A stretch of DNA of 63,286 nucleotides, the filler included. It is 4 parts of 4 records of this genome, joined end to end, with 100 filler letters (N's around TTAATTAATTAA, not from the genome) between each part and the next. Parts side by side here need not be neighbours in the genome. Positions count along the whole stretch, not along the records: positions 54,357 to 63,286 come from DRR723986_8015; 3 more parts are not named here. One strand, given 5' to 3'. Positions 4,444 to 63,286 of the stretch are shown here, piece by piece (within the stretch, counting starts at the first letter, position 1; the number at the start of each line of letters is the position of its first letter). A model generated the notes under the pieces. The model searched no databases. It was not told the origin of the DNA and saw nothing but the letters and a program-made list of their open reading frames with translations. The position numbers were made by a program, and so were the translations under genes.

Positions 4444-5685
4444 ATGCACGTTGCCGTTTTAGGGGCAGGAGTTATTGGTGTAACCACCGCTTATTCGCTT
4501 GCGAAGCGTGGCTACAAAGTAACAATTTTTGATCAAGCCGGGTCAATAGCCGCTGGGGCCACCTTTGCTAACGGCGCTCAAATTTCCTACAGTTTTGTGG
4601 ACCCCATGGCATCACCAGCCATGTTGAAAAAATTGCCAGCAATATTGCTTGGCAGAGACCCTAATATAAAACAAAAACCATCGCTTCAGCCAGACCATCT
4701 TCGCTGGGGTGCTTATTTTATGGGTAATTGTACTGAGCCAAGGGTCACCAGTAATTTGGAGAGCGCCATTTCGCTTGCGCTAGATTCGAGAGCAGCGCTC
4801 TCCAAGCTTTTGGCAGATAACAGTATTTCTTTTCGGTATAAAAAAGCAGGCAAATTGGTTGTCTCCAGAAACAAGGCAACCCTTTGCCGCATGAAGCATG
4901 CCGCCGATATTAAAACCAACCGGGGCATTGACACTCAGGCACTAAGCCCAGAGGAATGTTGGCAAATTGAGCCAAAAATAAAGCCGCATTTCCAAGATAT
5001 TGTGGGGGGCATTTATGCGCCGGGGGACCACGTTGGTGATGCCCGGCGCTTCACCAATGCGCTGGCGCAAATTTGTATTGATCAATACGGCGTGGACATC
5101 AAGCTGAAGCAAAAGGTCCTTGGTCTGGTTATAGATGGCGGCGACGTTACCGGTGTACGAACAGGTGATGGTGCTTTTTTGGCTGACAAAGTGGTGGTTT
5201 GCATGGGGACTGCTTCAGCAAAGTTTCTGAAGCCTTATAATATCCCTCTGCTTATAGAGCCGCTCAAAGGGTACAGTTTCACCATTCCGGCTGGCGATAA
5301 CGCCCCGTCTGTTAGCCTAACAGATGCGGACCACAAATTGGTGTTTGCGCGCTTGCACAGCGAAATACGCGTTGCGGGCCTTGCAGACTTTGACGGGCAT
5401 GATATGTCTTTGAAAGAAGATCGGTTGGCCACGCTTAAAAGTTTTGCCAAGCGATTGCTGCCTGATATCGGCGACTACAGCCACTCTGGCACGGGGTGGG
5501 TCGGTGCAAGGCCAATGACACCAAACGGCTTGCCAATTACCAAGGCCACAAAAATTAATAACTTATACTTGAATACGGGTCACGGCATGCTGGGCTGGAC
5601 ATTCGCTTGCGGAAGCGCAGAGCGACTGGTCGAAATTATGGCCTGTGCTGAGGGTACCAACAACCAAAAAAGGGCTGCACAATGA
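4444..5685 (+). CDS. FAD-dependent D-amino acid dehydrogenase (DadA/DguA-like)
   Basis: GAGVIG Rossmann motif, ATFANGAQIS, PLKGYSFT, GARPMTP, NTGHGMLGWT. Confidence 0.9.
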   Translation: MHVAVLGAGVIGVTTAYSLAKRGYKVTIFDQAGSIAAGATFANGAQISYSFVDPMASPAMLKKLPAILLGRDPNIKQKPSLQPDHLRWGAYFMGNCTEPRVTSNLESAISLALDSRAALSKLLADNSISFRYKKAGKLVVSRNKATLCRMKHAADIKTNRGIDTQALSPEECWQIEPKIKPHFQDIVGGIYAPGDHVGDARRFTNALAQICIDQYGVDIKLKQKVLGLVIDGGDVTGVRTGDGAFLADKVVVCMGTASAKFLKPYNIPLLIEPLKGYSFTIPAGDNAPSVSLTDADHKLVFARLHSEIRVAGLADFDGHDMSLKEDRLATLKSFAKRLLPDIGDYSHSGTGWVGARPMTPNGLPITKATKINNLYLNTGHGMLGWTFACGSAERLVEIMACAEGTNNQKRAAQ

Positions 5686-54356: not shown

Positions 54357-54371
54357 TCACGCAGATGCGCT

Positions 54372-54420
54372 GGATTCCGGATCTGCACGCAGCTTATGCT
54401 GCGCTTGTCCGGAATGACGG
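54372..54420 (-). repeat. REP-like palindromic element
   Basis: Minus strand CCGTCATTCCGGA-CAAGCGCAGC-ATAA-GCTGCGTGCAGA-TCCGGAATCC, nested hairpins at the contig edge. Confidence 0.7.
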
Positions 54421-54784
54421 TGGACAGCCGTAGATGGTGACGTTCCCGAGGGGCTGGCAACCGGATTGCACAGGGAGCTGAGAACGCCTTTCCACTTATA
54501 CCGGGACGCAGGGCATCTGGTCCGCGGGCCGCTTGCATTGCATTCGTCTGGTGGGCGGGTCTGTTTTTTTTGACGATTTTGGCGGCTCTCCTGTCAGGGC
54601 CGATCTTTTCCCTCTGTCATCATAATCCTTCAGACAGCCATTATCACATTACCTAAAGGCATTGCGTTGCCGCTCTTGGTGCTGTGTCTTTGCAGGAACG
54701 GGTTGCATTCATCTGTCATGAGCTCGTGTTACGCTAACTGACGACCCGCCCGGAAAGGCGGCCACTTCGAACGCGCATCTTGCC

Positions 54785-54817
54785 TTGACATGAATACTGA
54801 TTCATGTGTCATATATT
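54785..54817 (+). promoter_or_regulatory. sigma70-like promoter overlapped by a perfect inverted repeat
   Basis: TTGACA at 54785; ACATGAAT-ACTG-ATTCATGT at 54788-54807. Confidence 0.6.
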
Positions 54818-54906
54818 CCAGCGTCAGGCGATGATGTTACCCTGTCGAAGGCCGTGGGAGCGGCTTTGCAGGTTTGCCGGCCTTTCGCGCAACGGGAGGA
54901 GAATTC

Positions 54907-56106
54907 ATGACGAAAAGCGTTTTCCGCTGGGCCGTGCCGCTTTTGGCTGGCATCAGCGTGGCGGCTGCCGGGATTGCCGGTGCCCAGGCCGACGATATCA
55001 AGATCGCCCATGTCTACGGCAAGACCGGTGCCCTGGAGGCCTATGCGAAACAGTCGCATACCGGCCTGATGATGGGCCTCGAATATGCCACCGACGGCAC
55101 CATGGAAATCGACGGCCGCAAGATCGTGGTCATCGAGAAGGACACCCAGCTGAAGCCGGATATCGGCAAGGCCGCGCTGGCGGAAGCCTATGGTGACGAT
55201 GAAGTCGATATCGCGGTCGGCCCCGTCTCCTCCGGCGTTGCGCTGGCCATGCTGCCGGTCGCCGAAGAATACGAGAAGGTGCTTCTGGTGGAGCCGGCGG
55301 TTGCCGACAGCATCACCGGCGAGAACTGGAACCGCTACATCTTCCGCACCGCGCGGAACTCGTCCCAGGACGCGATCGCCAACGCCGTCGCACTGGGGCA
55401 GGAAGGCGTCTCCATCGCGACGCTTGCACAGGACTATGCCTTCGGCCGTGACGGCGTCGCCGCCTTCAAGGAAGCGCTGGAAGGCACGGGTGCCAAATTG
55501 GTGTTTGAGGAATATGCGCCAACCGATACCAAGGATTTCACAGCCAACGCGCAGCGCGTCTTTGATGCCCTGAAGGATGAGCCGGGCCGCAAGTTCCTGT
55601 TCGTGATCTGGGCCGGTGGCGGCAATCCGATCAGCAAGATCAAGGCAATGGAGCCGGAGCGCTTTGGCGTCGAGATTGCCACGGGCGGCAATATCCTGGC
55701 GGCCATGGCGGCCTACAAGGAACTGCCGGGCATGGAAGGCGCGACCTACTACTATTACGAAATCCCGAAGAATCCGGTGAACGACTGGCTGGTCGCCGAA
55801 CACCAGAAGCGCTTCAATGCGCCGCCTGACTTCTTCACCGCGGGTGGCATGTCTTCCGGCATTGCCATTGTCGAGGCGATCCGCAAGGCCGGGTCCACGG
55901 AGACCGAAGACCTGATCACTGCCATGGAAGGCATGGAGTTCGAAACGCCAAAGGGCAAGATGATGTTCCGGGCGGAAGATCACCAGGCTCTGCAGTCGAT
56001 GTATCACTTCAAGATCAAGGTCGATCCGGATGTCGAATGGGGCATCCCGGAGCTGGTGCGCGAGTTGACAATCGAGGACATGAACATCCCGGTGCGCAAC
56101 CAGTAA
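54907..56106 (+). CDS. Liv/HAAT-family ABC substrate-binding protein
   Basis: Signal peptide (AQA-D), GPVSSGVALA, NRYIFRT, TPKG; GGAGG SD. Confidence 0.92.
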   Translation: MTKSVFRWAVPLLAGISVAAAGIAGAQADDIKIAHVYGKTGALEAYAKQSHTGLMMGLEYATDGTMEIDGRKIVVIEKDTQLKPDIGKAALAEAYGDDEVDIAVGPVSSGVALAMLPVAEEYEKVLLVEPAVADSITGENWNRYIFRTARNSSQDAIANAVALGQEGVSIATLAQDYAFGRDGVAAFKEALEGTGAKLVFEEYAPTDTKDFTANAQRVFDALKDEPGRKFLFVIWAGGGNPISKIKAMEPERFGVEIATGGNILAAMAAYKELPGMEGATYYYYEIPKNPVNDWLVAEHQKRFNAPPDFFTAGGMSSGIAIVEAIRKAGSTETEDLITAMEGMEFETPKGKMMFRAEDHQALQSMYHFKIKVDPDVEWGIPELVRELTIEDMNIPVRNQ

Positions 56107-56247
56107 GCCGAATGAAGACGCGGCGGAGCTTTCAGCTTCGCCTGCGTGGCCCCAAGACCAAAGATTGCACGGCTGGTGTGAAACCCGCCCGGCCGGGCAC
56201 TCATCCGATACAGTTTTCGCGACAATTCAAGCCTGGGAACGCGCATC

Positions 56248-57030
56248 GTGGCCAAGGAACACCCGATTCTGGAAACGAGGGACCTGACCATTCGCTTCGG
56301 CGGTCATGTGGCGGTCGATCACGTTTCCTGCGCCTTCGAGCGAGGCACTCTGACGGCGATCGTTGGGCCGAACGGCGCGGGCAAGACCACCTATTTCAAC
56401 CTGATCTCCGGTCAGCTGGCAGCGACCTCCGGGGCTGTGCTGCTCAACGGCGAGACCATCACCAAACTGTCGGTGCCTGAACGCACCGACAGGGGGATTG
56501 GCCGGGCGTTCCAGCTAACCAATCTCTTTCCGACCCTGAGCGTGCGCGAAAACGTGCGGCTTGTAGCGCAGGCGAAGGCACGCAAGGGGTTCGATCTCTT
56601 CACCGTTGCAGAAAGTCATGTGGAACTTCTGGAGCGGGCAGACCACGTGCTGGCGGAGGTCCGGCTGATCGATCAGGCCGACCAGACCGTTTCCGCCTTG
56701 CCCCATGGCGACCAGCGCAAGCTGGAAGTGGCGCTGCTGATCGCGCTTGGGCCCCAGGTGCTCATGTTCGACGAGCCGACCGCCGGAATGAGCGTCGACG
56801 AAGTGCCGGTGATCCTGGAGCTGATCCAGAAACTGAAGAGCGACATGGACCGGACGATCCTGCTGGTGGAGCACAAGATGGATGTCATTCGCACCCTGGC
56901 CGACCGCATCATCGTTCTGCACAACGGGGCGCTGGTGGCCGATGGAGAACCCTCGGAAGTGATTGCCCTGCCGATCGTGCAGGAGGCTTATCTCGGCAAG
57001 GCACCGGCTCCCTCCGGGGAGGCTGCGTGA
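56248..57030 (+). CDS. ABC ATPase, LivG-like
   Basis: GPNGAGKTT, GIGRAFQ, DEPTAG, VEH. Confidence 0.93.
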   Translation: MAKEHPILETRDLTIRFGGHVAVDHVSCAFERGTLTAIVGPNGAGKTTYFNLISGQLAATSGAVLLNGETITKLSVPERTDRGIGRAFQLTNLFPTLSVRENVRLVAQAKARKGFDLFTVAESHVELLERADHVLAEVRLIDQADQTVSALPHGDQRKLEVALLIALGPQVLMFDEPTAGMSVDEVPVILELIQKLKSDMDRTILLVEHKMDVIRTLADRIIVLHNGALVADGEPSEVIALPIVQEAYLGKAPAPSGEAA

Positions 57031-57755
57031 TGGCGGAAAATCTGCTCACCCTTTCCGGAGTGCACACCCACATTGGCCCTTATCACATCCTGCAGGGCGT
57101 GGACCTCGCAGTGCCTGAAGGCGGGGTGACCGTTCTGCTCGGCCGTAACGGCGCAGGCAAGACCACAACGTTACGCACCATCATGGGGCTCTGGACGGCC
57201 AGCCAGGGCGATATCCGGTTTGACGATCATGTCATCACCAAACTGTCGACTCCCGAAATTTCCCGCAGGGGAATTGCCTTCGTGCCGGAAGACATGGGCA
57301 TCTTCACCGATCTGACAGTTGCCGAAAACATGATCCTGGCCGCTGCCAACGGGCCGATGGACCAGAAGCGCCTTGTCTGGATCAAGGAGCTGTTTCCGCC
57401 GATCGGGAGCTTCTGGAATTCCTCCGCGGGAACGCTGTCCGGCGGTCAGAAGCAGATGCTGTCCGTGGCGCGGGCGATCATCGAGCCGCGCCGGCTGATC
57501 CTGATCGACGAGCCGACGAAAGGCCTCGCACCGGCGATCATCAAGGCGATGACCGATGCGCTGAAGGAACTGAAGGAAACCGATACCACCATCCTGCTGG
57601 TGGAGCAGAATTTCGCCATGGCGTCCGGCATCGGCGACACGGTCGCGGTGATGGATGATGGTCACATCATTCATTCAGGCCGCATGGACGAACTGGTGGC
57701 GGATGTCGCCTTGCAGGAAAAACTCATGGGGCTGAGCCTGGAGGCGCATCAATGA
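57030..57755 (+). CDS. ABC ATPase, LivF-like
   Basis: GRNGAGKTT, LSGGQKQ, DEPTKGLAP, VEQN. Confidence 0.93.
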   Translation: MAENLLTLSGVHTHIGPYHILQGVDLAVPEGGVTVLLGRNGAGKTTTLRTIMGLWTASQGDIRFDDHVITKLSTPEISRRGIAFVPEDMGIFTDLTVAENMILAAANGPMDQKRLVWIKELFPPIGSFWNSSAGTLSGGQKQMLSVARAIIEPRRLILIDEPTKGLAPAIIKAMTDALKELKETDTTILLVEQNFAMASGIGDTVAVMDDGHIIHSGRMDELVADVALQEKLMGLSLEAHQ

Positions 57756-58780
57756 GCGAGACGGCGATCAAACCGCGGATCGAGAAAATCCCGCTGAAGG
57801 AACAGCTTGCCCAGAAGCTGCCGGTGCTGCTGGTGCCGGTGCTGGCTGCCGTCGGGCTCATTGCCATCGGCAATCCGGCGAGCTGGCTGACACTGACGGT
57901 GGCCGGGCTGGCCATGGGCATGATGATCTTCATCATGGCGTCGGGATTGACCGTGGTTTTCGGGCTGATGGACGTGATCAACTTCGGCCATGGCGCCTTT
58001 GTTGCCGTCGGCGCCTTCGTCGGCTTCACGGTTCTGGCCTGGCTGGCCGGCTGGACGGCTTCGCCAAGCGTCTTCATGAATCTCTCCGCCGTGCTGATTG
58101 CCATCCTTGCGGCCATGCTCGTCACCGGCCTTCTCGGTCTTGCCTTCGAGCGGGTGATCGTGATGCCGGTCTACGGCGAACATCTGAAGCAGATCCTTGT
58201 CACCATGGGCGGGCTGATCGTGGCTCAGCAGATGATCTACGTGGTCTGGGGGCCGGACGAGCTGCATATGTCCCGCCCGGAAGCCTTGCAGGGATCGCTC
58301 GTGATCGGCGAAGCAGCCATCGAAAAATATCGCCTGGTGGCGGTCGGTATTGGTCTCGCGCTGTTCATCGGCATGCGCCATATCCTGAAGAACACCAAGA
58401 TCGGTCTGCTGGTGCGCGCCGGGGTGGAGAACGGCGAGATGGTGGAAGCACTCGGCTACCGTATCCGCCGGCTGTTCCTGATCGTGTTCATGACCGGATC
58501 GGCGCTGGCCGGGCTCGGGGGCGTCATGTGGGGCCTCTATCAGGAAACGATTACCGCACACATGGGCTCGGAGATCATGGTGCTGGTGTTCATCGTGGTG
58601 ATCATCGGCGGCCTTGGCTCGGTCGAGGGCTGCTTCATCGGCGCCATGTTGGTGGGACTGCTTGCAAACTACACGGCCTTCCTGGCGCCGAAAGTAGCGC
58701 TGATCTCGACCATCGCGCTGATGGTCGTGGTGCTGATGTGGCGGCCGCAGGGCCTTTATCCGGTGGTCAAGGCGAAGTAG
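57752..58780 (+). CDS. ABC permease, LivH-like
   Basis: GLTVVFGLMDVINFGHG, VVIIGGLGS, RPQGL. Confidence 0.92.
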   Translation: MSETAIKPRIEKIPLKEQLAQKLPVLLVPVLAAVGLIAIGNPASWLTLTVAGLAMGMMIFIMASGLTVVFGLMDVINFGHGAFVAVGAFVGFTVLAWLAGWTASPSVFMNLSAVLIAILAAMLVTGLLGLAFERVIVMPVYGEHLKQILVTMGGLIVAQQMIYVVWGPDELHMSRPEALQGSLVIGEAAIEKYRLVAVGIGLALFIGMRHILKNTKIGLLVRAGVENGEMVEALGYRIRRLFLIVFMTGSALAGLGGVMWGLYQETITAHMGSEIMVLVFIVVIIGGLGSVEGCFIGAMLVGLLANYTAFLAPKVALISTIALMVVVLMWRPQGLYPVVKAK

Positions 58781-58795
58781 GGACGGAACAAGATC

Positions 58796-59857
58796 ATGCT
58801 GACCAGACTTCTTTCCGGCGACACGCCGCGCAGCGGCCTTCTGACGGCGCTGCTGCTGATCGTGTTGATCTCGCTCGCCTTTGCACCGTTTCTCTTTCCC
58901 GGTACCAAGTCACTGGAGACGGCCGCGCGGATCTGCATCTTCATCGTGCTGGTGGCAAGTTACGACCTGCTGCTGGGCTATGCCGGTATCGTTTCCTTCG
59001 CCCACACCATGTTCTTCGGTATCGGCGCTTATGGGACCGCGCTTGCCTTGTCGACCACCGGGCCGAACTACGGTTCGCTGATCTGGGGCGCGGCGGCGGG
59101 TGCCGGGGTTGCGGCCCTGTTCGCGCTGGCCATCGGGCTGTTCTCGCTTCGGGTGAAGGCGATCTTCTTCGCCATGGTGACGCTGGCGGTCGCAAGCGCC
59201 TTTGCCGTGCTGGTGTCGCAGATGTCCTGGCTGACAGGCGGTGAGGACGGGCTCAACTACAAGATCCCGCGCGAACTCACGCCTGCCTTCAAGCTTATCA
59301 AGGCGAAGGTGTTCGACGTCAGCATCAATGGCAAGGTCCTGGCCTATTACCTGGTGTTCTTCGCCGCCGCGATCCTGTTCCTGATCATGCTGCGCATCGT
59401 CAATTCGCCGTTCGGCCGCACGCTGAAGGCGGTTCGCGACAATGCCTTCCGGGCGGAGGCGATCGGTTACCGCGTGGTCTGGTATCGCACCACGGCCACC
59501 GTTCTGTCGGCCGTCATGGCAGCGCTTGCCGGCTCTCTCCTGGCGATCTGGCTGCGCTACACCGGCCCGGCAACAACGCTGTCCATGGAGATCATGATCG
59601 ACATTCTGCTGATGGTCGTGATAGGGGGCATGGGCACGCTTTACGGGGCCGTGCTCGGGGCAACCCTGTTCATTCTGGCGCAGACCTATCTGCAGAACCT
59701 GATGGGCGTAGCTGCAGAAGCAACCAGCGCGGTACCGGTGTTCTCGACGCTGGTGGCGCCGGAACGCTGGCTGTTGTGGCTGGGTGTTCTCTTCATTCTG
59801 TCGGTCTATTTTTTCCCGACGGGCATTGTCGGACGACTACGGGCGGGGCGTGCGTGA
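58796..59857 (+). CDS. ABC permease, LivM-like
   Basis: LLLGYAGIVSFAH, TGGEDG, SPFGRTLKAVRDN, GGMGTLYG. Confidence 0.92.
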   Translation: MLTRLLSGDTPRSGLLTALLLIVLISLAFAPFLFPGTKSLETAARICIFIVLVASYDLLLGYAGIVSFAHTMFFGIGAYGTALALSTTGPNYGSLIWGAAAGAGVAALFALAIGLFSLRVKAIFFAMVTLAVASAFAVLVSQMSWLTGGEDGLNYKIPRELTPAFKLIKAKVFDVSINGKVLAYYLVFFAAAILFLIMLRIVNSPFGRTLKAVRDNAFRAEAIGYRVVWYRTTATVLSAVMAALAGSLLAIWLRYTGPATTLSMEIMIDILLMVVIGGMGTLYGAVLGATLFILAQTYLQNLMGVAAEATSAVPVFSTLVAPERWLLWLGVLFILSVYFFPTGIVGRLRAGRA

Positions 59858-60648
59858 GCGGGAATATGCTGCATATCCGCGACGAGGGAACGGGCAGACC
59901 GCTGGTGCTGATCCACGGCTGGTCCTGTCCGGGCCGGTTCTTCGAAGGCCCGATCGGGGCTCTGAAAACTGACGCCCGTTGCATCGTTCCGGATCTGCCG
60001 GGCCACGGTAAAACAGCGGGCCGGTTGCCATTGACCATCGAGGGAGCAGCCGATGCGGTTCATGCAGCTTTGGCCGAGCGCGAACTAACTGAAGTAATCC
60101 TCTGCGGTTGGTCGATGGGAGCGTTGGTTTCCTATGCAATGATCGAGCGGCACGGCGCCGACAGGATCTCGCAGTTCGTTGCCATTGACATGACGCCGAA
60201 GGTTCTGAACGACCCCGACTGGCAGAACGGAACGCTGAACGGCCTCAATGCCGAACTCAACGACCATTTCCTGAATGCCATTGTGGCGGATTGGGCCAAA
60301 CTGCCGGCCCGGATCGCGAGACGACTGTTCGCCGAAGGCCTGCCCGTGCCGGAGTGCGTTGCGGAGCTAGCCCGCAAAGAGATTGCTGCAGCCGATCCTG
60401 TGCTCTTGAAGCCGATGTGGTCGTCACTGACCGCGCAGGATTTCCGCCCTCTTTTGAAATCCTTTCCCGTGCCGTTTCATCTGGTGGCGGGTCTGCGCAG
60501 CCAGCTTTACGGCCCGGGTGTCCATCGCTGGCACGCGGACAATGTTCCGGATTTCCATTTCCATGGCTTTGAAGCGTCGGGCCACGCGCCGCACATGGAA
60601 GAGCCGGACAAGTTCAACAGCCTGCTGCGGAACCTGGTGAAGGGCTGA
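59854..60648 (+). CDS. alpha/beta hydrolase (BioH/perhydrolase-like)
   Basis: LVLIHGWS, DLPGHG, GWSMG, SGHAPHMEEP; GTGA overlap with the LivM-like gene. Confidence 0.88.
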   Translation: MSGNMLHIRDEGTGRPLVLIHGWSCPGRFFEGPIGALKTDARCIVPDLPGHGKTAGRLPLTIEGAADAVHAALAERELTEVILCGWSMGALVSYAMIERHGADRISQFVAIDMTPKVLNDPDWQNGTLNGLNAELNDHFLNAIVADWAKLPARIARRLFAEGLPVPECVAELARKEIAAADPVLLKPMWSSLTAQDFRPLLKSFPVPFHLVAGLRSQLYGPGVHRWHADNVPDFHFHGFEASGHAPHMEEPDKFNSLLRNLVKG

Positions 60649-60693
60649 GGTGCACAAACTTGGCTTTTTGGGACGGCCATCCTGACCGTTTCC

Positions 60694-60939
60694 TCAGTGT
60701 CCGCCGCCCAGCTTCGCCTTCACGAATTCAATGATCCGGTCCAGGATGCTCAAAACCAGGAACACGGCGAGCAGGCCGACGAAGAAGCGGAGGTCGCGCA
60801 GCAACGTGCCGGGGGCAAAATCCTGGACGCTGCTGTTGGAGTAGGTCCACACAGCCCAGGCGATCCCGGCGAGGAGTGCTGTCATTACCAGCGAGATCAG
60901 GATGGTCTGCCAGAGAGGCTTTTGCGGCTGGTCGCTCAT
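60694..60939 (-). CDS. small two-TM membrane protein (81 aa)
   Basis: MSDQPQKPLWQTIL...; two hydrophobic helices; ATGA overlap with the upstream gene. Confidence 0.7.
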   Translation of the reverse strand: MSDQPQKPLWQTILISLVMTALLAGIAWAVWTYSNSSVQDFAPGTLLRDLRFFVGLLAVFLVLSILDRIIEFVKAKLGGGH

Positions 60940-61697
60940 TTCAGCACCCTGGCGGTCAGAAGGTCTGCCTTGAATACCATCAGATCGTCCAGCTGTTCGA
61001 CCTCGCCTTCGACCTCGATGTAAAGCGCCAGCAGCGGATCGATGGCCTCGCCGAGAAGCTGGCCGTCCTTGCCGGCCATGAGAAAGAAGGTGTGTCCCTC
61101 GACAGGTCCGGACGAGACAAAGACCGGCGGAATGCCTCCGGTCAGGCAGAGGTCCGCGCAGGCCTTGTGCGCAAGGCCCCGGCCCGGGCGCATGGCGCCC
61201 GCATAGCACTTGCCGTCGCAGATCTCGCCGGTCAGCTTCCAGCGGCCGAGCGAGACGGGTTCGGATGGGGTGAAGCTGGGTGCATCGTCCGTTGCAGGAG
61301 CTACCTGTCCCACCTGGATCATTGTCAGATCGCCCCGGTTCACCGGCACTCCGCGCAAGGTCACCGGCATCTCGCGATTGGCTTCGGCCTGTTCAAAGAC
61401 ACCGCGTTTGCCCTGGCCTGCCAGCATGTAGGTGCGGGCAGGGGTGTCGCCATCAGCCGGAATGCGGAACACCGGATAGGGCCGGAGTTCGAGCAGGCCT
61501 GTTTGCTCGAACCTGTTGCCCCACTGAAACGTGCCACTGCCCGGATCGTTCTGGGTGGTGGACAGGGCGAAGGCTGCAAGGCCCAGTCCCGCGACAAAAC
61601 ACAGGGAGAAGACCCCGAGAAAGGCCACCAGTGGCTTCGGCACCTTGTTGAGATAGCCGACGAAAAACGGCGCCGCCTTGGTTTGTTTCCAGCTCAT
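60936..61697 (-). CDS. membrane-anchored protein with a Cys/His cluster (253 aa)
   Basis: N-terminal TM; GEICDGKC...HKACADLC..GGIP; GGAGG SD; ATGA overlap. Confidence 0.8.
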   Translation of the reverse strand: MSWKQTKAAPFFVGYLNKVPKPLVAFLGVFSLCFVAGLGLAAFALSTTQNDPGSGTFQWGNRFEQTGLLELRPYPVFRIPADGDTPARTYMLAGQGKRGVFEQAEANREMPVTLRGVPVNRGDLTMIQVGQVAPATDDAPSFTPSEPVSLGRWKLTGEICDGKCYAGAMRPGRGLAHKACADLCLTGGIPPVFVSSGPVEGHTFFLMAGKDGQLLGEAIDPLLALYIEVEGEVEQLDDLMVFKADLLTARVLK

Positions 61698-62761
61698 GGC
61701 GCACCTCCGATCACCACCGGCTCGACATAGGTGCCGGGTGGCAGAGCGTTGGGATCGAGAAGAACGGTGGAGCCGACCAGCTTCAGCTTGTAGGTGGCGA
61801 TCTTCTCGGTGAAGGGCGCGGGTGCTCGACCGTCGGCCAGATTGTATTGATACCCGTGCCAGGGGCAGGTGATGCAGCCCCACAGCACCTTGCCCTCGCC
61901 AAGCGGACCGTTCTGGTGAGCGCAGACATTGGTGACCGCCGACAGCTTGCCGTCATACTTGAAGATTGCGACACGCTCCTCTTCGCTCAGTGTCACGACC
62001 TTGGCGCATTTGTCGTCGATTTCGTCCACCTCTCCGGCGACGACCCAGCCGGCTTCTTCCAGAGAAGCCTTTGCCGTGGCATCGCCCTTTTCCCGATTGG
62101 CCTCCAGGCGCCCGCTTGCAAAGTGAAGACCGCAGACCATGACAACGCTTGCCGCAACCATGCCGGTGAAGATGGGATCGGACGGGCCTTGCAGAGCGCC
62201 GAGCGCGACATGCAACACCACGAAGGCATAGGCGGCATAGATGAACATGTGCAGCGCCTTCCAGATCGGCGCTCCCAGAAAGCTGAGCCAGAAATCATGG
62301 CTGGTGGCAGCCAGTACGAACAGGATCAGGAGAGCAGCGATACCGAAAGCCTCGAAGGGAAAGCCGATCACCTGCCCGTAGCTTGTGTTGGACGACAGTA
62401 ACGCGACATAGCTGTCTGTCGGTGAGAAGTTGAAATACCAGCCAAGCACATAGTTGGCGTGAACGGCGGCAATACCGGCGGTCATCACGCCGAAATGGCG
62501 GCGGTTATAAAGCAGCGGCAGAAAGCGCCGGTCGAGCCGTGCCAGTGGCCCGATGCACAGGATCACCGTCAGCATCAGGAAGGCACAACTGCCGAAGGCA
62601 CGCATCCTCAGGATGGCACCGTCAATTGGCCGGGTGACATCCTCATGGAACGGCCCGACACGAATGAAGATGTAAAGATAAAGCGCAACGGCAATCAGCA
62701 GGATGGCATCATAGACCATCTTGTTGCGGTTCCAGATCACCGGTGTGTATTGCACGCTCAT
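61694..62761 (-). CDS. MsrQ/ferric-reductase-like heme-b TM domain fused to a Rieske [2Fe-2S] domain
   Basis: NRRHFGV..AAVH, LAATS, WKALH..Y..VVLH; C-terminal CAH-x16-CPWH. Confidence 0.9.
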   Translation of the reverse strand: MSVQYTPVIWNRNKMVYDAILLIAVALYLYIFIRVGPFHEDVTRPIDGAILRMRAFGSCAFLMLTVILCIGPLARLDRRFLPLLYNRRHFGVMTAGIAAVHANYVLGWYFNFSPTDSYVALLSSNTSYGQVIGFPFEAFGIAALLILFVLAATSHDFWLSFLGAPIWKALHMFIYAAYAFVVLHVALGALQGPSDPIFTGMVAASVVMVCGLHFASGRLEANREKGDATAKASLEEAGWVVAGEVDEIDDKCAKVVTLSEEERVAIFKYDGKLSAVTNVCAHQNGPLGEGKVLWGCITCPWHGYQYNLADGRAPAPFTEKIATYKLKLVGSTVLLDPNALPPGTYVEPVVIGGAP

Positions 62762-62925
62762 TGGCTTGCCTCCCCGGAGCTTTCCACCGGGGCTTCAATC
62801 AGCACAGCCGGTCTGTCTGCGGGGGGCGACTGGCGCATCGCCAGGATGGTGAAGAAGACCAGCGGCAGGAGCAGGCCGAGGACAGTCCAGATACGGGCAT
62901 GGGCTTTGCGGTGTGCACGTTTCAC
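62758..62925 (-). CDS. small single-TM protein (55 aa), absent from the ORF track
   Basis: GTG start after GGGGAGG; MKRAHRKAHARIWTVLGLLLPLVFFTILAMRQSPP...; GTGA and ATGA overlaps with both neighbours. Confidence 0.8.
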   Translation of the reverse strand: MKRAHRKAHARIWTVLGLLLPLVFFTILAMRQSPPADRPAVLIEAPVESSGEASQ

Positions 62926-63143
62926 CGGCCAGCCTCCCCATGCTTTTCAAGCACGTACCAGCGATAGAGCACCAGCGGCCAGATCAGGCAGATGCCGGGA
63001 ATGAGCAAGGGCCGGAAGACATGAGACCCGCGTGCGGATGGCTCCACCCGGTCGATGCCGATGACAAGAAAGAGTGCCGCGACCAGCCCGCCGGCCATGA
63101 GATAGTATTTGCCGATGTCGATCAGAATGGCTGCTGTTTGCAA
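62922..63143 (-). CDS. small membrane protein (73 aa)
   Basis: TTG start after GGGGA; TM-GIDRVEPSARGS..FRPLLIPG..LIWP..RW. Confidence 0.75.
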   Translation of the reverse strand: MQTAAILIDIGKYYLMAGGLVAALFLVIGIDRVEPSARGSHVFRPLLIPGICLIWPLVLYRWYVLEKHGEAGR

Positions 63144-63256
63144 GTGGATCCCCGCCAGGTCTGGATGTGATTGGTGTCAGCTTAGCTCATTACGAAGCAT
63201 TGCCAACGGTCTCTTCATTTCTTCCGGTCCGAGTTGGCCTCTCTTCTCTTCTCACC

Positions 63257-63286
63257 CCGTCATTGCAGGGCTCGACCCTGCAATCC
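63257..63286 (+). repeat. REP-like palindromic element at the window end
   Basis: CCGTC-ATTGCAGGG-CTCGA-CCCTGCAAT-CC; same CCGTCATT...AATCC frame as 54372-54420. Confidence 0.7.

Follow-up and report, generated by a model that had tools for sequence, protein, structure and literature searches.

A widespread but unstudied membrane complex, encoded around an FRD–Rieske fusion protein, that probably passes electrons

Introduction

What is the function of five overlapping minus-strand genes, here called A to E, of which the middle one, C, joins a heme-b-type membrane domain to a Rieske domain in a single protein? The genes are located in a window (the whole stretch of DNA that was analyzed, 63,286 nt, filler included), of which positions 54,357 to 63,286 correspond to record DRR723986_8015. 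A preliminary description made from the sequence did not recognize them as a characterized system, and our results bear this out: no characterized system matches in Pfam, NCBIfam and further searches, and no published function for the A–E system was found. Judged from their domains and neighborhoods, the products of these genes form a membrane complex that is common in bacteria, has not been studied before and probably serves in electron transfer. The available part of the survey by Zhang et al. (2013, PMC3591440) assigns two hemes to four-His FRDs, names a Rieske domain as one of the electron-transfer extensions of bacterial FRDs, lists the FRD-Rieske architecture as model M4 without an assigned function, and gives MsrQ/YedZ as the sole family of bacterial FRD proteins that was characterized at the time.

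Gene organization of the locus

The genes are coupled by 4-nt overlaps at every junction, GTGA between A and B and ATGA at B/C, C/D and D/E (Table 1), as previously described; open reading frames and junction sequences agree on this point. Longer open reading frames for D and E exist from upstream GTG codons (60936-61883 and 60694-61209, respectively); however, the homologs of both proteins start at the ATGs. The five are real genes and not chance open reading frames, since tblastn matches to them recur in the related loci with gene order and strand unchanged. Contigs from RNA libraries span the A–E operon, although these may derive from DNA. A GGGGA ribosome-binding site lies 5' of the start codon of A, which aligns with an ATG in loci L001 and L008. 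The region upstream of A contains a perfect palindrome at 63263-63283, and no sigma-70-like promoter was seen in its 143 nt.

Table 1. Positions of genes and features of the A–E locus, counted along the window
Feature	Position	Strand	Details
Gene A	62922-63143	minus	73 aa, TTG start
Gene B	62758-62925	minus	55 aa, GTG start
Gene C	61694-62761	minus	355 aa, ATG start; ATGA overlap at both ends
Gene D	60936-61697	minus	253 aa from ATG overlapping the stop of C
Gene E	60694-60939	minus	81 aa from ATG overlapping the stop of D
C ferric-reductase transmembrane domain (residues 57-181)	62219-62593	minus	Pfam
C Rieske domain (residues 239-324)	61790-62047	minus	Pfam
D membrane-anchor helix (residues 21-48)	61554-61637	minus	hydropathy, structure model
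D Cys/Met/His motif (residues 160-184)	61146-61220	minus	inserted in second OB-like domain
Upstream intergenic region	63144-63286	minus	143 nt between A and window end

Conservation of the gene neighborhood

Relatives of C are abundant, a scan of genome_contigs having confirmed at least 597 within its first 600 stretches, and the neighborhoods of 80 C-related loci from at least six phyla were compared. By tblastn, gene D follows C in 79 and gene A precedes it in 75 of these 80 loci, while gene B was detected in 50 and gene E, by sequence, in 16. Conservation thus centers on a core of A-(B)-C-D, to which certain lineages add gene E with its small two-TM product. The anticipated co-occurrence of all five genes holds across phyla for A-(B)-C-D but not for E. 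Sequence relatives of E are found mainly in Roseibium/Stappia, and other Alphaproteobacteria have a small two-TM open reading frame in its slot; a small open reading frame occupies this slot in 36 of 76 loci, about four of which look unrelated, leaving about 32 of 76. In six of the 80 loci, from Acidobacteriota and Bacteroidota, C and D are fused into a single polypeptide, and such fusions also account for six of the 150 D-family representatives listed. These fusions indicate that C and D act together, and that the Rieske domain of C and the globular part of D lie on opposite sides of the membrane.

A, B and D have no family in Pfam or NCBIfam at E<=1, and E has below-threshold matches only. 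By Kyte-Doolittle hydropathy, A and E each contain two hydrophobic segments, and B and D each contain one. Protein A has conserved residues G18, F25, R44, P49, G50, W55 and P56, and no conserved Cys or His. Protein B passes the membrane once and begins with a basic stretch (5 K/R in 11 residues), and its H9 and W13 are kept in 50 and 49 of 51 sequences, respectively; in cyanobacterial and acidobacterial loci its slot holds longer proteins of 150-180 aa. A, B and E would be small membrane subunits, with no conserved cofactor ligands save H9 of B.

The heme–Rieske fusion protein C

The fusion of a heme-b-type domain with a Rieske domain was confirmed by Pfam, in which both parts score above their cut-offs: 42.4 bits for Ferric_reduct (PF01794; cut-off 28) and 58.5 bits for Rieske (PF00355; cut-off 20.3). 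The PGAP name of C is only "Rieske 2Fe-2S domain-containing protein". The C sequences have the arrangement that marks four-His FRDs, namely one His pair in each of TM3 and TM5, spaced by about 12-14 residues. The pairs H89/H101 (12 residues apart) and H171/H184 (13 apart; H184 falls just past the end of the Pfam match) are invariant in all 34 aligned sequences, and two bis-His hemes are therefore predicted. H155 and H213 are also invariant in this alignment. The Kyte-Doolittle scan of C gives five hydrophobic segments, and the sixth membrane helix is assigned because of homology to FRDs. The positive-inside rule is obeyed only in part, the predicted periplasmic loop 34-54 carrying four K/R.

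The Rieske ligands, C280-x-H282 and C299-x2-H302, are invariant in the same 34 sequences. Among solved structures this domain comes closest to the soluble Rieske-type ferredoxins that serve dioxygenase systems (best 2e4p_A, E 1e-10), and the NCBIfam models AndAb and HcaC match it as well. A high-potential Rieske protein of the bc1/b6f type was considered for this domain and rejected: the disulfide Cys pair of that type is absent (C296 is variable), no twin-arginine motif is visible in the sequence before TM6, and the best matches are the soluble ferredoxins. There is no FAD_binding or NAD_binding match to C in Pfam, its C-terminal domain being the Rieske domain, and no PepSY_TM match to any of A–E in Pfam at E<=1.

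The membrane-anchored protein D

In its structure model (pLDDT 86.8), protein D has a TM helix near the N-terminus, and behind it lie two beta domains that are OB-like. A conserved FFVGY and a basic N-terminus (4 K/R in 22 residues) precede the anchor helix. Residues 56-134 give the best OB superposition with 3koj_B (Z 7.6, rmsd 3.2, 76 residues), and the C-terminal domain modeled alone gives 8ehb_A (Z 6.8, rmsd 2.9, 79 aligned), both values being within the background range of the tool. Foldseek returned no match to D at E<=1e-3, and no sequence relative was found in Pfam, NCBIfam or PDB. The family itself is large (1601 representatives of 50%-identity clusters at E<=1e-3), and among the 120 D matches listed every name given is "hypothetical protein".

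The second OB-like domain carries the motif C160-x3-C164...H177-x2-C180-x3-C184, which had been put forward as a periplasmic metal or thiol site. Its Cys and His residues are conserved, with the exception of the first Cys: only 59 of 151 D-family sequences have C160, whereas C164, M169 and C180 are kept in all 151, and H177 and C184 in 150. D161, just before C164, is kept in 150 of 151. The site is therefore better written as C...M...H..C...C plus an Asp, and the pattern C-x4-M-x7-H-x2-C-x3-C is present in 148 of the 150 D-family representatives listed. The alphaproteobacterial D proteins have a twin C-x3-C arrangement. Confidence in the D models is lowest at the motif loop (pLDDT 60-74); H177, C180 and C184 share one helix face, so that all three cannot bind one ion, and some of the motif Cys may form a structural disulfide instead of serving as metal ligands.

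Secreted paralogs of the D domain encoded with Sco

The motif domain of D is homologous to a secreted family of about 142 aa (hhalign probability 98.2%, E 3.7e-14), and plain tblastn also gives matches that link the two in 51 of the 80 loci. The secreted D-type domain populates over 1600 90%-identity clusters. Next to the gene for the ~142-aa protein, all 17 genomes have a downstream gene for a Cys-rich 173-aa protein, and in 14 of these 17 the operon ends, two genes downstream of the ~142-aa gene, with SCO1/SenC (PF02630). These Sco-linked proteins are paralogs and not orthologs of D. They keep the same residue set as the D motif, with no heme protein gene adjoining, and have the additional conserved residues H53, W38 and W58. 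The tie of D to copper is an indirect one, and no Sco gene was found in any of the 80 A–D loci.

Signal-peptide-like N-termini are present in all 15 members of this family that could be examined (of 17), which would put the D domain on the periplasmic side and leave the Rieske domain of C in the cytoplasm. Both these paralogs and the C-D fusions thus agree with the proposed topology of a cytoplasmic Rieske center and a periplasmic Cys/His site. The link between the D domain and the Sco-associated family is a concrete, testable lead. A gene for a YHS-domain secreted protein is found within 5 kb in six of the 80 loci.

Upstream genes and candidate electron donors

The absence of a flavin domain noted earlier is correct for genes A–E; however, in the closest relative (95%-identical, L001) two flavoenzyme genes lie just beyond the point corresponding to the end of the window. 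These encode a Rieske-tagged pyruvate-oxidase-like enzyme and a Rieske-tagged glutamate-synthase-like enzyme, immediately upstream of the operon. The Rieske-TPP enzyme gene occurs in 19 and the Rieske-GltS enzyme gene in 21 of the 80 loci, and in L009 the gap between the TPP gene and A is only about 14 nt. The Rieske-TPP enzyme has its best scores against models of pyruvate oxidase and ubiquinone-dependent pyruvate dehydrogenase (E 5e-95 for the latter, below the cut-offs of those models). Genes for Rieske-tagged enzymes are absent from 59 of the 80 loci, and in 24 of the 80 a gene for an SDR, not an obvious one-electron donor, is found upstream of A instead. Three different Rieske-tagged proteins in one neighborhood suggest modular Rieske-to-Rieske docking, a scheme that would connect soluble dehydrogenases with the membrane conduit.

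Proposed function and comparison with known systems

We consider it somewhat probable that A–E form one inner-membrane electron-exporting complex, in which the periplasmic site of D is the acceptor and which possibly handles copper. In such a complex C would span the membrane with six helices and have its two termini in the cytoplasm, where its low-potential-type Rieske [2Fe-2S] domain would accept single electrons, in this lineage most likely from the Rieske-tagged pyruvate-oxidase-like TPP and glutamate-synthase-like FMN enzymes. The electrons would cross the membrane via two heme b groups, held by H89/H171 on the inner and H101/H184 on the outer side, and would pass to D, which is presumably tethered by its single helix and carries the Asp/Cys/Met/His/Cys/Cys site in its second, periplasmic OB-like domain. 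Most likely a redox-active metal is bound here, copper being the leading candidate; a metal/thiol hybrid resembling the CxxxC + His site of Sco is a possible alternative. If the D site is redox-active, the complex would be a periplasmic reductase or a reducing chaperone. After MsrQ/YedZ, the A–E system would be the second case of bacteria putting the FRD conduit to use, one in which both the iron-sulfur entry and the protein exit are new.

A more specific proposal, possible though on balance unlikely, is that the complex is a new periplasmic reductase for cupric or other metal ions, in which oxidation of keto or amino acids feeds the Rieske-diheme conduit and then the copper domain of D, while the free paralogs aid Sco. 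If this were true, the D-type domain would be an unrecognized and widespread player in bacterial copper handling, and its free-standing paralogs would work with Sco in the maturation of copper enzymes. The means by which bacteria hold periplasmic copper in the reduced state, ready for delivery to cytochrome oxidases and other cuproenzymes, are a subject of ongoing work, according to the available part of a report on CrpH (PMC13038864).

Several known systems share parts of this scheme. Like C, the NOX, FRE and STEAP proteins have a four-His, presumably di-heme FRD core that sends electrons outward, with Fe(III) and Cu(II) as substrates in the case of FRE and STEAP, according to the available part of the FRD survey (PMC3591440). 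However, C has a Rieske [2Fe-2S] domain in place of the FAD/NADPH dehydrogenase domain of the long NOX/FRE form, and the system described here has a dedicated periplasmic protein acceptor, as proposed, and extra small subunits. The Rieske-type ferredoxins of dioxygenases (BphF, NDO ferredoxin, CarAc) are the best matches to residues ~232-335 of C (E 1e-10 to 1e-9) and share the CxH...CxxH ligands and the lack of a conserved disulfide Cys pair; in contrast to them, the domain in C is tethered to a membrane cytochrome and does not shuttle to an oxygenase, and no oxygenase gene was found among A–E in Pfam or NCBIfam. Sco is a periplasmic, membrane-associated protein with a CxxxC + His site. The relation of D to Sco1/SenC is through the operon of its paralogs, whereas the model of D is OB-like and not a thioredoxin fold, D has no match to PF02630 in Pfam at E<=1, and its site adds an invariant Met, an Asp and a third Cys. 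The nearest functional analogs may be the PepSY_TM heme reductases, such as the FoxB-type ferrisiderophore reductases and CrpH of Bordetella pertussis, membrane heme proteins that are likewise thought to reduce periplasmic metal; in the available part of its description, heme-copper oxidases are said to depend for their function on support by CrpH, whose role overlaps with that of a putative cupric reductase, CcoG (PMC13038864). They nevertheless belong to an unrelated family and have neither a Rieske entry domain nor an OB-fold partner.

Alternative explanations

It is distinctly unlikely that D is not the acceptor and that the outer heme instead reduces a soluble periplasmic substrate, such as chelated Fe(III) or Cu(II), or else O2, the substrate of NOX. 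D would then be a substrate-binding, assembly or regulatory subunit, with its Cys residues in structural disulfides or a Zn site. FRE and STEAP do reduce metals at the outer heme with no protein partner (PMC3591440, available part), OB folds commonly bind ligands, periplasmic Cys residues often pair as disulfides, and the alphaproteobacterial D proteins have the twin C-x3-C noted above. However, M169, H177 and D161 are as invariant as the Cys residues, which points to more than disulfides, and the Sco-linked paralogs retain the whole set with no heme protein beside them.

A little less probable again is reverse flow, in which a periplasmic donor captured by D, or quinol, would feed electrons through the hemes and the Rieske domain to the Rieske-tagged enzymes, for instance the glutamate-synthase-like one. 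The hemes of FRDs can in principle conduct both ways, and the FMN domains of glutamate synthases, whose Rieske-tagged form is encoded upstream in the 21 loci mentioned above, normally run reductively. On the other hand, pyruvate oxidase and the PoxB-type dehydrogenases, to which the co-encoded TPP enzyme has its greatest likeness, release electrons; the characterized FRD proteins named in the survey (YedZ, FRE, NOX and STEAP) all move electrons outward (PMC3591440, available part); and transfer from a periplasmic donor to a low-potential, ferredoxin-type Rieske center would be uphill.

We give still less credence to C as an entry point to the quinone pool, with electrons running from Rieske-tagged dehydrogenases via the hemes to quinone, and with D, A, B and E as accessory proteins. 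PoxB reduces quinone directly, the upstream TPP enzyme has its below-cut-off match to ubiquinone-dependent pyruvate dehydrogenases, and the di-heme membrane anchors of succinate:quinone reductases also reduce quinone. FRD proteins, however, are not known to possess a quinone site. Moreover, the dehydrogenase genes are missing from most loci, and the fusion of a periplasmic Cys/Met/His protein to C in six of 80 loci would be left unexplained.

The electron-exporting complex favored here resembles MsrQ-MsrP (YedZ-YedY), in which an FRD heme-b protein moves cytoplasmic electrons to an adjacently encoded periplasmic partner, and C has distant sequence similarity to MsrQ in TM3-TM5. The heme domain had accordingly been called MsrQ-like, a label that the comparison does not sustain. 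The electron entry of C is a fused Rieske domain, and its partner is a membrane-anchored OB-fold Cys/Met/His protein, whereas MsrP is a Tat-exported molybdoenzyme. According to the available part of the FRD survey (Zhang et al., 2013, PMC3591440), replacement of the first canonical TM3 heme His is a signature of YedZ/STEAP. MsrQ lacks this residue, whereas C has all four. It is consequently very improbable that C is a divergent MsrQ serving an MsrP-like molybdoenzyme encoded elsewhere: its similarity is weak (NCBIfam E 6.6e-9; 30% identity over 152 residues to the MsrQ of the relative) and its score against the MsrQ equivalog NF003831 is 35.6 bits against a cut-off of 130; H89 faces a Met of bona fide MsrQ in a pairwise alignment; no molybdoenzyme family matches among A–E or the recurrent flanking clusters scanned; and in the genome of the 95%-identical relative, in which the C ortholog scores 34 bits, a separate MsrQ gene at another locus scores 135.6 bits. 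Together, the score, the intact heme His residues and the separate true MsrQ of the relative largely refute the assignment of C to MsrQ.

Gene Organization and Conservation of the Locus

The preliminary description of five consecutive minus-strand genes, here named A to E, was borne out in its open reading frames, overlapping junctions, C domains and hydrophobic segments (table below). Every junction is a stop/start overlap of the form GTGA or ATGA. For D and E, a mechanical list of open reading frames offers longer forms beginning at upstream GTG codons; the homologues start at the overlapping ATGs. The TTG start of A corresponds to ATG in two relatives and is preceded by the ribosome-binding site GGGGA. 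At E<=1, Pfam and NCBIfam give no match to proteins A, B, and D and sub-threshold matches only to E; the ESM Atlas clusters nearest to A are named 'hypothetical protein'. The operon is covered in full, at about 96-97% identity, by contigs from RNA libraries of related strains (four runs), but this coverage does not in itself imply transcription; likewise, separate contigs of run X9 span the C/D and A/B/C junctions without implying a single transcript.

Table. Coordinates of the operon and adjacent features in the window, with hydrophobic segments from a hydropathy scan and tblastn counts among the best 80 C loci.
Feature	Position	Strand	Description	Hydrophobic segments	Loci (tblastn)
A	62922-63143	minus	73 aa, TTG start	two	75/80, before C
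B	62758-62925	minus	55 aa, GTG start	one	50/80, between A and C
C	61694-62761	minus	355 aa		
D	60936-61697	minus	253 aa	one	79/80, immediately after C
E	60694-60939	minus	81 aa	two	16/80, after D
Liv-type ABC transporter and alpha/beta hydrolase	54874-60648	plus	binding protein, two ATPases, two permeases, then hydrolase		
Palindrome	63263-63283		8-bp stem		

Relatives of C were collected by a scan with one genome per species, in which at least 597 of the first 600 stretches matched were confirmed. The best 80 loci belong to Alphaproteobacteria, one gammaproteobacterial MAG, Cyanobacteria, Planctomycetota, Acidobacteriota, Bacteroidota, and an actinobacterial MAG, the nearest being that of Stappia sp. 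BW2 (L001, 95% identity; hereafter the relative). When these loci were searched by tblastn with the five window proteins, gene order and strand were always the same. Five loci lack A, two of them being cut by a contig end. In the cyanobacterial and acidobacterial loci, the place of B is taken by a longer protein of 150-180 aa. Matches to E come from Roseibium and Stappia, apart from two weak ones; a small same-strand open reading frame with hydrophobic segments, starting -30 to +120 nt from the D stop, occupies the E position in 36 of 76 loci, of which about four look unrelated and the others encode alphaproteobacterial two-TM proteins. In six of the 80 loci (L045, L056, L068, L069, L071, and L074), C and D are joined in a single open frame in which the Rieske motif and the D motif are both present, and among the 150 D-family representatives listed, 6 are fusions of this kind. 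Two further apparent fusions (L019 and L050) proved to be out-of-frame shadow open reading frames, which reduced the tally from eight to six. Based on these counts, positions and fusions, A-(B)-C-D is the conserved unit and E a lineage-specific addition.

Protein C Combines a Four-Histidine Ferric Reductase Domain with a Rieske Domain

Protein C matches the Pfam families Ferric_reduct (residues 57-181) and Rieske (239-324), both over the cut-off. Its alignment with relatives (34 sequences, 47-86% identity) contains six invariant histidines, H89, H101, H155, H171, H184, and H213, and invariant Rieske ligands C280, H282, C299, and H302. The spacings between H89 and H101 (12 residues) and between H171 and H184 (13 residues) are those of the pairs used for two bis-His hemes in ferric reductase domain (FRD) proteins. 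The FRD survey by Zhang et al. (2013, PMC3591440) states that two hemes are bound by four-His forms and that the missing first canonical His is the mark of YedZ/STEAP proteins; it lists Rieske among the electron-transfer extensions of bacterial FRDs, with no function given.

The heme domain had been labeled MsrQ-like, and this label did not survive. C scores 35.6 bits against the 130-bit cut-off of the MsrQ model; in the genome of the relative, the C orthologue scores 34, whereas a separate gene at another locus reaches 135.6 bits. In a pairwise comparison with C, this separate MsrQ carries Met opposite H89 and shares the other three histidines. Given the score, the separate MsrQ gene, and the retention of H89 among the four canonical histidines, C is a four-His FRD protein outside the MsrQ/YedZ group.

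The Rieske domain of C is closest to soluble Rieske-type ferredoxins of dioxygenase systems, and no conserved extra Cys pair was found in it across the 34-sequence alignment. We take these two features to point to the low-potential class.

Protein D and Its Paralogues Beside Sco Genes

Protein D represents a large family (1601 representative clusters at E<=1e-3, of which 1319 reach E<=1e-10), in which all source-given names among the 120 matches listed are 'hypothetical protein'; the best named match is from Roseibium aggregatum (97%). The nearest ESM Atlas cluster is auto-named 'DUF5666 domain-containing protein', with no Pfam family common to its members. The AlphaFold2 model of D (34-sequence alignment, pLDDT 86.8) consists of a helix at residues 21-48 followed by two beta domains. 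Neither a Foldseek search of this model against PDB (E<=1e-3) nor a profile search of PDB (E<=1) returned a match. With VIA-align, residues ~55-142 gave generic OB-fold matches (best Z 7.6), as did the C-terminal domain modeled alone (pLDDT 88.0, best Z 6.8); since both values lie inside the stated background of the tool, the domains are termed only OB-like. Copper OB proteins of the SilF/CusF type reached Z values of only 5.8 and 4.4, which carry no evidential weight.

The conserved Cys/Met/His motif lies on a helical insert in the second domain of the model; the motif loop is the lowest-confidence part of the D models. Residue conservation was counted over 151 sequences, i.e., the window protein and 150 representatives. 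G157, C164, G167, M169, and C180 are kept in all of them, D161, H177, and C184 in 150, and K163 in 146. Of the motif C-x3-C...H-x2-C-x3-C originally proposed, C164, H177, C180, and C184 therefore stand, but its first cysteine, C160, is kept in only 59 sequences; the form C-x4-M-x7-H-x2-C-x3-C is present in 148 of the 150 representatives. H177, C180, and C184 share one helix face and cannot all bind one ion. Two D-family matches in other genomes (G070:C33:234540-235256 and G007:C1:1431362-1431730) contain one in-frame TGA each; a sequencing error, a disrupted gene or stop-codon recoding would each account for it.

A D-profile search of 301 genomes from the class of the relative yielded 13 full-length matches (E<=1e-60) and nine short ones covering the motif domain only. 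A second sample of 401 genomes added eight further genomes with a short D-like gene, 17 in total. The encoded OB-like proteins have ~142 aa and carry GEIID-x-WC...M...HH-x-CA-x-WC-x2-GG-x-P. In a profile-profile comparison, the short family matches the C-terminal domain of D over 91 columns (probability 98.2%, E 3.7e-14), with Asp, Cys, Met, His, and CxxxC in register; one short protein used as tblastn query matches D in 51 of the 80 loci. The family comprises 1651 unnamed proteins at E<=1e-5. In the genome of the relative, where D is present, the short form was not found at E<=1e-8.

These genomes are sampled Pseudomonadota (L084-L100; e.g., L089, 5923-7483). In all 17, the next gene after the short one encodes a 173-aa protein that looks secreted and has four invariant cysteines (D-x2-C-x5-C-x3-C...C), and in 14 of them SCO1/SenC (PF02630, E about 1e-41 to 1e-47) completes a conserved three-gene operon; no other conserved neighbor was found around these genes. 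The short and the 173-aa proteins have no Pfam or NCBIfam match and no PDB match below E 0.15. The 173-aa protein was rejected as a relative of D itself (profile comparison probability 4.8%).

A signal-peptide-like N-terminus (basic, hydrophobic, AxA-type) is found in all 15 of the 17 short proteins that match the motif pattern, which argues for a periplasmic location of the motif domain of D. Combined with the C-D fusions and the one anchor helix of D, this location places the Rieske domain of C in the cytoplasm, in keeping with a six-helix FRD whose two ends both face inward. Sco proteins use CxxxC and His in their chemistry. Because gene neighborhood links the motif domain to a copper chaperone of this kind, copper is the leading candidate for the D site, although the link is indirect, as none of the 80 A-D loci contains a Sco gene. 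Copper handling by the putative site is a tentative proposal, held with low confidence.

Upstream Region and Rieske-Tagged Enzymes

Only 143 nt separate A from the end of the window, and the context past this end is taken from the relatives only. In the relative, a Na+/H+ exchanger fragment is followed by a gene for a glutamate-synthase FMN-domain protein with an N-terminal Rieske domain (Rieske-GltS, 536 aa, 839-2449), a gene for a pyruvate-oxidase-like enzyme also bearing an N-terminal Rieske domain (Rieske-TPP, end at 4455), a 163-nt gap, and A. Rieske-GltS occurs in 21 and Rieske-TPP in 19 of the 80 loci, which belong to Roseibium, Pseudovibrio, and rhizobial MAGs; in L009, the TPP gene is only ~14 nt from A. 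The best scores of the TPP enzyme, all below cut-off, are to models of pyruvate oxidase and ubiquinone-dependent pyruvate dehydrogenase, which describe enzymes giving electrons to a membrane acceptor. Together with C, these genes form three Rieske fusions in a row, and the occurrence of the same small iron-sulfur domain in three clustered proteins suggests a Rieske-to-Rieske electron hand-over into C.

The intergenic region upstream of A is poorly conserved and varies from ~14 to ~250 nt among relatives. No sigma-70-like promoter was found, the terminator-like matches all lie within coding sequence, no Rfam family matched at E<0.5, and inspection of the 143-nt region by eye gave no convincing ECF- or sigma-54-like motif. 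This region, between the off-window upstream gene and A, contains the perfect palindrome TTGCAGGG-CTCGA-CCCTGCAA, present once in the window and in three copies (<=1 mismatch) in the genome of the relative, with none for the reversed control. Many different RNA-library contigs match 63253-63286 only, each over a short piece. The palindrome resembles small dispersed palindromic elements.

Proposed Electron Export and Its Alternatives

The best-supported reading of A-E, which we hold with moderate confidence, is a putative electron-export module. Cytoplasmic donors would reduce the Rieske center of C, from which the electron would cross the membrane by way of two hemes to reach the Asp/Cys/Met/His/Cys/Cys site of D. 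Weak points are the low model confidence of the D motif loop, the placement of H177, C180, and C184 on one helix face, the only partial agreement with the positive-inside rule, and the absence of the Rieske-tagged donors from most of the 80 loci. Among the alternatives, D could be a non-redox subunit, with a soluble substrate reduced directly at the outer heme of C, which appears improbable. Electron flow in the reverse direction is slightly less probable than that, and reduction of quinone ranks a little lower again. The interpretation of C as a divergent MsrQ is hardly credible in view of its score and histidine pattern.

The export module is proposed to work like MsrQ-MsrP and like the FRE/STEAP metalloreductases. 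It differs from known systems in that C falls outside both MsrQ and the long forms of NOX/FRE in membership tests, C carries a ferredoxin-type Rieske domain, and the exit protein D belongs to no described family. The PepSY_TM heme protein CrpH may be a functional analogue; a 2026 report (PMC13038864) describes its support of heme-copper oxidases and its overlap with the putative cupric reductase CcoG. In the accessible literature on FRD+Rieske and MsrQ+Rieske proteins, the three-Rieske cluster and Sco neighborhoods, only the domain catalogue of Zhang et al. (2013, PMC3591440) was relevant. A-E would be an FRD-based system that passes electrons through the membrane to a periplasmic partner of its own.

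Other Neighboring Genes

The alpha/beta hydrolase gene that follows the Liv-type transporter genes converges on the operon, ending 45 nt from the E stop, and both hydrolase and transporter are kept beside the operon in the nearest relatives only. A gene for an SDR protein is located on the strand of C in 24 of the 80 loci, in most of them directly upstream of A. The plasmid of Rhizobium leguminosarum bv. trifolii WSM1689 (L081, 9191-12385) has the order SDR-A-B-C-D-small open reading frame, for which the PGAP names are at best 'Rieske 2Fe-2S domain-containing protein' and 'hypothetical protein'. Directly downstream are genes for a TetR regulator, an ECF sigma factor, a DUF1109/NrsF-type protein, a chlorite-dismutase-family protein, and a second NrsF-family protein, which may represent an oxidant- or metal-stress regulatory context. 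A general link of the operon to a stress sigma factor was rejected as too sparse, with an ECF sigma gene at <=5 kb in only 6 of the 80 loci.

In Acidobacteriota and Planctomycetota, D is followed by genes for an unnamed 160-aa membrane protein, DinB, TANGO2, and ATP-grasp proteins, each in 7-11 of the 80 loci (L049, L052, L057, L060, L063, L064, L068, L070, L073, L075, L076, and L080); for the DinB, TANGO2, and ATP-grasp genes as a set, the count is 9-11. An OlsB-like N-acyltransferase gene is often divergent at the A-D loci of these two phyla (8/80). A secreted protein of ~156 aa with a YHS domain, a metal-associated type of domain, is encoded at <=5 kb from A-D in six of the 80 loci (L057, 6962-7429; L049, L060, L076, L042, and L065).
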